In this document: piece by piece, positions 12,801 to 18,489 of the stretch
How positions within the stretch are numbered: the stretch's first letter is position 1
Layout of the letters: each line of letters starts with the position of its first letter
Origin: Lingula anatina
Taxonomy: Eukaryota; Animalia; Brachiopoda
Reading direction: 5' to 3'
Assembly (NCBI GenBank): GCA_051362555.1
Contig: CM120641.1
Location: forward strand, 24,186,401 to 24,250,400
DNA length: 64,000 nt
The notes under the pieces: generated by a model
What the model saw: the letters and a program-made list of their open reading frames with translations, nothing else
What the model was told of the DNA's origin: nothing
Database searches by the model: none
Program-made: the position numbers and the translations under genes

Positions 12801-15800
12801 CCACTGGTAGTGACATTAACTCTTCTTTTTCTTCATAATCCTCAAATATCCATAGATGTTTTTTTTTTTTTTTTCAATGAAAACTTTTTTTTTCATTACA
12901 GATTGACATAATTTTTGCGTCATTCATAAGAAGTGGGGAGCACATCAAACAAATTCGTGAGATTTTGGGAGAGAAGGGAGCTTACATTAGAGTTGTTGCC
13001 AAAATTGAAAACCAAGAAGGCATTCAACAGTAAGATGTCTTTTTTTTTATTTCATTGAGTTGGAGATATAACATCAAATTTTACAGCAATTAAGATATAA
13101 AATTTTTAAAATACGAAAACAACATAACTGAAAAATGAAGCCTGATCTGTCTATGCAGAGAATGTTTGAACTAAATATAAAGCAGTGCAATAATTGTGTA
13201 TAAACCATTGTTTTTTTCCAGTTTTGATGACATTCTCAGTGAGGCAGATGGCATCATGGTAGCCAGAGGGGATCTAGGTATTGAGATCCCCCCTGAAAAG
13301 GTATTTCTGGCACAAAAGATGATGATTGGGCGCTGTAACAGAGCAGGAAAACCAGTCATTTGTGCCACACAGGTGAGTGTGAAGAAAAGCCTCTGAAAGA
13401 AGAAGAAATTTAGTTATGTTCCAAAAATTGAAGATTTCCAAAAAAGCTTAATTGTATAAAAAGATGAGAATTTTGTGTCTGATTTTAAAAGTTAAAAGAA
13501 AGAAATTCAGTTATTTAATCACTTGTAATTTAACAGGAAAAACCTTCCATGGTTTTAAAGTGAAACTTTTGTTTCAGTTATACATTATCACATGCCTACA
13601 AGAAGTCATTATTCCAGTTTTCTATTAAAAATTCAGTTTTACAAACCAGTGGTCATTTTGAATTTGATTCTGTAGATGCTGGAGAGCATGATAAGTAATC
13701 CACGTCCAACTAGAGCAGAGGCCAGCGATGTTGCCAATGCAGTGTTAGACGGAGCAGACTGTGTCATGCTCTCGGGAGAAACTGCCAAAGGAAAATATCC
13801 TCTGGAAGCCCTGAAGATGATGCATCATGTATGTAACAACTTGGAAGTTGTTCATTACTGGAAAATAATAAGAAAATAGAATCCTAAATTGGTTTGTCTG
13901 AAACTTTTCAGTCCACTGCTAAATGGGACTAGTTGGCCCTTTAAATACCACTTGTCAAATTCAAAATTGACTAGTAGGAAGATGAAATCACATACAGCCA
14001 CTGATATAGATTTTGAAAAATCTTCCTAATTTAAGACTGGAAAATCCAATCTACTTGTCACTTGCCTCAGAGCAGTGGTTCACTTTGCTTACTATTATAG
14101 AAAAATTTTGGAGTCTTAGTAATTATGTGATTCATATTTTCAAAGGAAAAATTTACTTTTATATCAAATTGACATTGTGGAATTGTTGAAACTGTTACAA
14201 AGACTTAGTTTGATGCTTTACTAGATCTATAGATCTATCAGGTTAGATCTATATTTTCAACGTGACTGTATTTACTTAGGTATGTAGAGAGGCAGAATCT
14301 GCAGTATTTCACAGACAGCTGTTTGAAGAACTGCGACGTGAGACTCCTATACCCACTGACACCACCCATGCCACTGCCATAGGCGCAGTGCAAGCCGCTA
14401 TTACTGTACAAGCTGCTGCCATCATCGTGGTTACAACTACTGGAAGGTAATGTTAGGACTATATTTATATACCATTGATTATAGTAACTGTTAAATCATG
14501 CAAGTTAAATCTCTGATGGTTAATACAGTCTTAATTCTTTTCTCACTATGATATTTTAATGCTTTAGATAGTAGATGTACTTGTGTTTTTCAGTGGGTCA
14601 TACTTGGTTTTAGTCCATATTGATACCAATTTAAATGAGTATTAAGACCAATAGTGTAATTTAAAGATTAAGCGAATATATTAGGTTCATTATATTAAAA
14701 AAATTGTATATAGTAACTGCTTTGTTATACGAATAATAATGAAGCAAGTAAATTTTTAAATTTTATTGCTTCCCATTGCATGCATGGATCATTAGGTTAA
14801 AAAATAAGCATGGATGCTCATAAGTATTTTTTCTGCTTTAAACTTTTTTATTGCAGGAATTTCTGCTGATGAGGCCTGTCTCTTATATTTTGCCACATTT
14901 TACCCACTAAATGTTGTAATATTTGCAGGAGCAGTTGTATATGTATGAAATAAGTACAATAACATTTGTTCGCAAATGTACTTAAATGTTTTGTCATATA
15001 AAAGTGGTTTATGTAAAACTGCTGTGATGGCCCAAATTGAGGTTATGCACATCTTCTTAGAGAGGGTTTACCTTACCAGCTTGTACATTTCAGTTGTTGC
15101 TCGATATAACATTTTCAGTCCCTGATGAACCAAGAGTTATTGTATGTTAACTTCATCCTGAATCTCTATTTTTGCAATTTCTGGTTCTTTTTTTTTTTTT
15201 CTCTTCTCCTATAGAAGTGCTTTCCTGATTGCTAAGTACCGACCACACTGCCCAGTCATACTTATTACTCGGAAGGGTTTTATGGCTCGGCAAGCTCACA
15301 TGTCCCGAGGAGTTTTCCCCATCCATTTCACTGGTAGGAGGAAGTGGAGTCCTTGAAAAAAATTTTTGTATTTAGTCTAATGCCTTGGGTACTTTTTTGC
15401 ATCTGACTGAGGCTTTGAAAAGTTTTGTACTAAACAAGCAGATTTCTATTTTATTTTATTTTTTGACTGGGTCTGACTCTAAGCATGTTATCAAGATGGC
15501 ATTACATTGCTGTGTGTTTGTTAGAGATTGAATGAGGTCTGCCTATACGTGTGTGAGCATCTTTCTCTACTCTAACTGAACATGGATACTAGGGTATCCT
15601 ACAAGTTGGGTCTTACAACTATAACAACAGCAATGCCACTTACTTCATCTGAGTCAATTCTGTCAAAGTCTAATTTATTTATTGCACGACACGTTTAGCT
15701 GATAACAATGAAAAACCTTAAGACATGTTCCAGCCACGTCCCCTCTGACTTTCATGTGTTTTGCTCTATGTATGTGTACACTATGCTTCCTAGGCTAGAA

Positions 15801-18489: not shown

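Follow-up and report, generated by a model that had tools for sequence, protein, structure and literature searches.

The segment that is swapped between the PKM1 and PKM2 forms of vertebrate pyruvate kinase (PK) ends at Arg436, at an exon boundary, and includes Lys433 and the C-C interface. This swap relies on tandem homologous exons of the C domain that are used singly, in a region that is tied to FBP allostery (PMC7954323, PMC9741552), and it offers two versions of the segment (PMC7954323). More generally, clusters of mutually exclusive exons are described in PMC9741552 and PMC4165533 as having exons of equal length, keeping ligand residues, shifting the reading frame upon double inclusion and carrying UGCAUG elements in flanking introns. 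Each of these features is also seen at the brachiopod locus that we report here, which belongs to an already known class, tandem duplicated exon substitution (PMC9741552).

We analysed a 64-kb stretch of Lingula anatina DNA (the window), which holds a complete PK gene on the + strand at ~8332-18489. Between 14446 and 18260, this gene carries seven homologous exons of 119 nt each, equal in phase, all with AG before and GT after and all without stops or indels. With a profile built from the seven, nhmmer returned E-values of 2e-28 to 4e-22 for these copies, as it must by construction, and no eighth copy was found in the 64-kb window. The last exon of the gene matches RefSeq 'pyruvate kinase PKM isoform X6 [Lingula anatina]' with 100% identity, and the protein cluster of this X6 isoform has 11 members, all of them Lingula RefSeq isoforms (XP_013385652-667, X1-X11). 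Isoforms X1 to X7 contain exactly one copy apiece, as indicated in this list of the coding exons (residues in PKM numbering):

8332..13834, + strand: upstream constitutive coding exons (N, A and B domains), carrying the Arg43, Asn70 and Arg106 equivalents (R73, N100 and R132).
14280..14446, + strand: constitutive exon preceding the cluster; its end, TTTGR with a split Arg codon, corresponds to PKM 432-436 and lies in the phosphate loop of the FBP site.
15215-15333, + strand: copy 1, in RefSeq X4; unusual residues H447, L452, F458, M459 and S466; 42 of 234 junction reads, both sides.
15831-15949, + strand: copy 2, in RefSeq X3; T437-P438, N443, W456, A458 and V466; 50 of 234 junction reads, both sides.
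16023-16141, + strand: copy 3, in RefSeq X7; the most divergent copy, with V449 and C471; rare, with joints on the acceptor side only (4 of 234 junction reads).
16221-16339, + strand: copy 4, in RefSeq X5; T437-P438, R440, M444, M447 and P459; 52 of 234 junction reads, both sides.
17024-17142, + strand: copy 5, in RefSeq X2; S440, S443 and Y458; no cysteine; 61 of 234 junction reads, both sides.
17269-17387, + strand: copy 6, in RefSeq X6; nearest to single-copy orthologues; no joint listed in four RNA runs.
17554-17672, + strand: copy 7, in RefSeq X1, X8 and X9; N440, G447, I448, T450, S458 and C459; 25 of 234 junction reads, both sides.
18260..18489, + strand: constitutive last coding exon, equivalent to PKM 476-end, retaining Trp482, Arg489 and the FBP loop.

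The seven isoforms are thus already in RefSeq as automatic annotation, without functional or evolutionary comment; no published description of the Lingula PK exon cluster was found in the open-licence literature, where our search returned nothing on Lingula PK. Two short 5' coding exons (8332-8367 and 9877-9903) further provide alternative N-termini (RefSeq X8 and X9) that multiply the isoforms.

Searched alone against the PDB, copy 1 gave an E-value of about 6e-8 and, together with its split codon, it aligned without gaps to residues 436-472 of 531-residue PKM chains, so that the exon encodes the equivalent of PKM 437-475. This is where an earlier interpretation of this DNA, made from its letters (the sequence-only reading), had placed it, from Ser437 to about Lys475 with Ser437, His464 and 469-471 included. 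The residues that it had listed for copies 1 to 7 were found again in our alignment: 437-438 is SA, TP, TA, TP, SA, SA and TA, 463 is A, G, C, I, V, S and C, 466 is S, V, T, H, Y, C and F, the 456-459 segment is distinct in all seven copies, His464 is invariant and copy 3 has a Cys at 471. Cysteine number also differs between copies, as it had stated (1, 1, 3, 1, 0, 2 and 2), and its proposal was that redox sensitivity might be tuned in this way. Ten of the 39 columns are invariant in the seven copies (445, 446, 454, 455, 461, 462, 464, 467, 468 and 470), and the copy 3 isoform matched Pfam PF00224 and PF02887 at 503.7 and 102.6 bits, above curated cut-offs. Orthology to the PKM1/PKM2 switch was considered and rejected: the Lingula swap starts at 437 and the 433 equivalent lies in a constitutive exon.

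Reads from four of nine Lingula RNA runs (6-26% of each run) could be placed on 14200-18700, and they included 234 junction reads (42, 50, 4, 52, 61, 0 and 25 for copies 1 to 7). Acceptor-side joints connected 14446 to copies 1, 2, 3, 4, 5 and 7, and donor-side joints connected copies 1, 2, 4, 5 and 7 to 18260, all of them GT..AG. Five of the seven copies therefore have joints on both sides, copy 3 has them on one side and none is listed for copy 6; RefSeq models exist for all seven. No copy-to-copy or skip-all joint was listed above threshold among the 234 junction reads of the four runs. In mRNA, the copies are swapped one at a time, as shown for six of the seven. Six copies share the donor GTGGGTA (15950, 16142, 16340, 17143, 17388 and 17673), which contains a second GT four bases on, and the reads use the first. 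The introns between copies 2 and 3 and between copies 3 and 4 measure only 73 and 79 nt, and the long one that separates copy 4 from copy 5 (16340-17023) is A-rich, shows low read depth over its whole length and contains two 25-nt inverted repeats that cross each other; none of its ORFs matched a Pfam family above cut-off.

From frame arithmetic, double inclusion and total skipping both shift the reading frame. Upon double inclusion, a stop arises 78-108 nt ahead of the last junction in 18 of the 21 pairs, and within the last exon in the three pairs whose second member is copy 4. RefSeq X10 (copies 1+2) and X11 (copies 5+7) are rare double inclusions with an early stop, so that exclusion is imperfect and decay likely cleans up the products. 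Nonsense-mediated decay was reported for 14 C. elegans mutually exclusive exon clusters (PMC4165533), and it may partly keep exclusivity at the Lingula locus as well.

The copies are not used in the same proportions in all samples. Copies 1 and 2 together made up 65 of 90 junction reads (72%) in RNA sample X4 versus 27 of 139 (19%) in RNA samples X7 and X8 combined, a shift that was significant by distinct read starts (Fisher p 2e-5 for acceptors and 2e-8 for donors) between samples from different studies, X7 and X8 stemming from a more divergent population that is 95-99% like the window. X7 and X8 agreed with each other in copy usage (p 0.5 and 0.96), and RNA sample X1 gave 5 junction reads only. 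Copy usage is thus variable between samples, which is not tissue specificity, and the shift could be one of population or library.

One candidate for the control of copy choice is a short motif in the introns of the cluster:

14777, 14781, 16174, 16198, 16356, 17186 and 17476, + strand: seven intronic TGCATG elements, candidate RBFOX sites by sequence motif.

The motif, which was first noticed by eye and then tested, occurs 7 times in the cluster introns versus 1.4 times in shuffles, with none of 500 shuffles reaching 7. It is found in the upstream intron and after copies 3, 4, 5 and 6, and none stands directly after copies 1, 2 or 7. TGCATG adjoins the copies that are favoured in RNA samples X7 and X8, and it is absent after copies 1 and 2, which are favoured in X4. 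PMC4165533 ties the TGCATG/UGCAUG element to RBFOX control of mutually exclusive exon clusters; at the Lingula locus, copy choice may be tissue- or stage-regulated, possibly by RBFOX. A pairing of docking sites with a selector, of the Dscam exon 6 type, was unsupported: the best summed score was matched by 2 of 30 shuffled sets, and only the stem of copy 7, picked after inspection, beat its shuffles (0/200). A 13-bp complementary pair (14777-14789 with 17471-17483, -19 kcal/mol), noticed post hoc and significant for copy 7 only, would cover TGCATG sites and place copies 1-6 in a loop.

At the DNA level, the copies are only 39-64% identical to one another, and their dS is saturated, being undefined in 15 of the 21 pairs and 1.6-4.2 in the other 6, for a dN of 0.27-0.68. 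The seven copies are old, intact and maintained. Among the 40 best-supported of 149 differences in divergent samples, 7 of the 8 that fall inside copies are synonymous; the sole non-synonymous one listed is N443H in copy 2 (position 15850), at a variable helix position. In a tree of the seven copies and 16 orthologue segments (39 columns), a single origin obtained a p-AU of 0.5, which neither establishes nor rejects it, and copies 3, 4 and 7 had long branches. The best identity of a copy to any of 175 distinct non-Lingula segments was 23-27 of 39 residues, and no named brachiopod or phoronid was among the matches when copy-specific orthologues were looked for.

The copies also depart from the rest of the family at positions that are usually conserved. 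Residues unseen in 167 full-length homologues occupy 37 of 266 copy positions (14%) versus 11 of 462 constitutive positions (2.4%), so that the rate of unusual changes is about six times that of the constitutive exons of the same gene; at columns that are 85% conserved, the counts are 36 of 154 versus 14 of 216. Taken alone, five copies show a significant excess, but copies 5 and 6 do not (p 0.08). Standout sites are 438 (Pro in copies 2 and 4), 443, 444 (Met in copy 4) and 471 (Cys in copy 3). Position 440 is Leu in 170 of 175 orthologue segments and Arg, Ser, His or Asn in copies 4-7, 447 is His, Pro, Met or Gly among copies, and 458 is changed in 6 of the 7 copies. In a model of the copy 3 isoform, the standout sites are predicted to lie in helix 436-443, in the following loop and at the start of helix 457-465. 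Y444M in copy 4 could not be read from the Tyr444-Lys422 bond that crosses the C-C interface in PKM2, as Lingula has Thr at 422.

PMC5980995 names five contacts of the amino-acid pocket: Arg43, Asn70, Arg106, His464 and, at 469, an oxygen of the main chain. The equivalents of the first three are encoded by constitutive Lingula exons and His464 by all copies; at the Asn44 equivalent there is a Met, which 70 of 167 homologues share. The sequence-only reading had equated the swapped segment with the amino-acid effector pocket. The segment does carry His464 and 469-471, but with three of the five named contacts in constitutive exons it is only the C-domain half of that pocket. His464, Gly468 and Phe470 are invariant across copies, and 469 is Val (copies 1, 4 and 7) or Leu (copies 2, 3, 5 and 6). 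Teleost PKLR has naturally lost the pocket histidine, with Gln instead of His464 (in 20 of 175 distinct segments). The same reading had also singled out a variable FBP-site residue: 437 is indeed Ser or Thr, but the change is mild, with Thr in 22 of 175 orthologue segments and Thr-Pro in yeast PK (1a3w 407-408, equivalent to 437-438), an enzyme that is activated by FBP. The FBP-site elements are kept, with TTTGR and S/T at 432-437 and with Trp482 and Arg489 in the last exon. In human liver PK, S449T left the PEP and alanine parameters near wild type (0.18, 0.32 and 0.088 versus 0.23, 0.26 and 0.080; PMC6861286).

Since the direct contacts are either invariant or made by the main chain and since the changes lie around the sites, we infer that coupling would be tuned, and not pocket specificity. 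The variable residues may then act as second-shell positions, in the helix that follows the phosphate loop of the FBP site (438-444), in the loop behind it (447) and at the start of the next helix (456-459); PMC6861286 reports that pocket-near positions of liver PK tune coupling, and there V481L (equivalent to 469) lowers FBP coupling from 15.3 to 4.6. Considering that copies are swapped, that their usage depends on the sample and that they diverge at normally conserved positions, a tuning of regulation is plausible. What had been proposed from the sequence, that exon choice tunes effector sensitivity, therefore keeps its plausibility, but its wording as a pocket swap fails. Altogether, we think it probable that this old and intact cluster, used as one copy per mRNA, tunes the coupling of FBP and amino acids to PEP affinity rather than rebuilding a pocket, with copy 3 as a putative weak or minor form.

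A first alternative, which we judge unlikely while giving it real weight, is that the copies are near-equivalent, having drifted under relaxed constraint and being kept intact only since each is spliced so frequently that breaking it would be costly in enzyme, in which case their usage would have no metabolic meaning. Every core contact is kept, the long branches of copies 3, 4 and 7 fit relaxation, no other sampled animal needs a cluster, and AlphaFold folds even the copy 3 isoform normally (TM 0.96 to PKM2 and pLDDT 93-95 across the swapped exon), in a prediction that is confident but insensitive to point changes. The excess of unusual residues is as compatible with relaxed constraint as with selection for new settings. 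However, near-equivalence sits uneasily with seven copies of identical length, without a stop and with saturated dS, and also with the strong usage shift between samples, the TGCATG enrichment and substitutions that are not conservative although their sites hardly ever vary (L440R/S/H/N, R447H/M/G, Y444M and Q458 in 6 of 7 copies).

By analogy with bacterial PK, the cluster might instead be a seven-position selector of the metabolites that PK heeds, with some copies opening to an effector that animal PK is not known to respond to, RBFOX picking the copy per tissue and three lineages having independently made three adjacent C-domain exons switchable; we regard this as quite unlikely. In M. tuberculosis PK, PMC5719368 describes an effector phosphate that is held by Thr374, Gln375, Ser376 and Thr379, a G6P phosphate to which Arg382 and Arg385 of the following helix bind, and a canonical pocket that is closed by Trp398; in G6P-regulated bacterial PK, the third effector site combines two arginines of helix C-alpha2 with a basic G6P loop. 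The spacing of the phosphate contacts matches 432, 433, 434 and 437, which would place the arginines at 440/443 and Trp at 456, among the most unusual positions of the copies, in a register that was obtained by arithmetic and assumes no gap, as in the ungapped yeast alignment. Copy 4 has Arg440 and copy 2 has Trp456. Both G6P-site arginines are present together in no copy at 440/443 of this putative register (L/K, L/N, L/S, R/A, S/S, H/S and N/A for copies 1 to 7). Because of this, and because every isoform retains Arg489, it is unlikely that the effector has changed.

It is distinctly improbable that each copy re-specifies the amino-acid pocket, such that isoforms would differ in the amino acids that they sense or would switch from inhibition to activation or back. 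The exon does supply His464 and 469-471, with Val or Leu at 469 and Cys471 in copy 3, and position 481 of human liver PK, the equivalent of 469, alters regulation (PMC6861286). Against this stand the invariance of His464, Gly468 and Phe470, the binding of 469 through its main chain and the distinction between Ser and inhibitors, which is made at Arg43 (PMC5980995), in a constitutive exon. Positions 463 and 466, which the sequence-only reading had stressed as pocket variation, do not bear it out either: neither is a named contact and both vary freely in ordinary single-copy orthologues (C/S/A/L/M at 463 and Y/H/W/F/L at 466).

That some copies, chiefly copy 3, encode inactive or unstable subunits, so that the cluster throttles PK amount or yields damped mixed tetramers, is very improbable. 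Pro471 is present in 173 of 175 orthologue segments, copy 3 has only 4 of the 234 junction reads, and 10 of 11 substitutions of the equivalent proline of liver PK (Pro483), P483C included, were without activity (PMC6861286). By this analogy, copy 3 (P471C), the rarest copy among those with junction reads, may be impaired. Yet the same liver PK data set also scores V481I as having no activity (PMC6861286), although Ile is native in PKM, so that human mutant data transfer poorly. Copy 3 moreover retains frame, length and all ten invariant residues, and a throttle would account for one copy and not for seven. Finally, we practically dismiss an assembly artefact or dead pseudo-exons, in favour of which we found nothing save that copy 6 has no listed joint, given how little the copies resemble each other in DNA (39-64%), the spliced reads that join six of them and refute the idea for those six, and the intronic reads from other individuals that cover the region.

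The sequence-only reading had proposed that exon choice could underlie the tissue isozymes of molluscan PK, an enzyme whose role at the PEP branch point is documented in bivalves (PMC10445735). This does not hold, since the gene is that of a brachiopod and the sampled molluscs carry one version of the segment. Among annotated proteins, with up to 15 members considered in each cluster, one version of 437-475 per species was found in ten molluscan clusters, in 17 Lineus and 20 Tubulanus isoforms and in ten further animal clusters. Molluscan gene models have two homologous last exons instead: in 10 of 10 pairs, the isoforms share 466-560 identical residues up to 475/476 and then diverge. Judging from these models, alternative last exons are a better candidate genetic basis for molluscan PK isozymes. 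They are seen in bivalves and gastropods and carry Trp482, Arg489 and the FBP loop. A second last exon of PK is absent from the 64-kb Lingula window, and in 6 of 6 pairs the single last exon of Lingula scores nearer the short molluscan type. PK isoforms of nemerteans and abalone carry optional peptides, variable in length, at the 475/476 junction, which makes this loop a splicing hot spot in spiralians.

As in molluscs, the Lingula system consists of one gene with homologous alternative pieces of the C domain, and the switch point after residue 475 is common to both, but molluscs choose between two terminal exons (476-end) and Lingula among seven internal ones (437-475). Compared to vertebrate PKM, which swaps the preceding segment, Lingula has one version of the M1/M2 segment and seven of the next. 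To our knowledge, large mutually exclusive clusters are known mainly from Dscam-type genes, and seven copies in a core metabolic enzyme make the Lingula cluster a large one. Should the kinetics of the isoforms be equal, it would be an ordinary, though large, exon cluster. It provides a natural panel of seven enzymes that are identical save for 39 residues, which lie between the tetramer interface and the sites for FBP and amino acids, so that second-shell control of PK allostery is directly testable. Splice-based diversification of the PK regulatory domain thus arose again outside vertebrates, in another exon and with more versions than the two of PKM.
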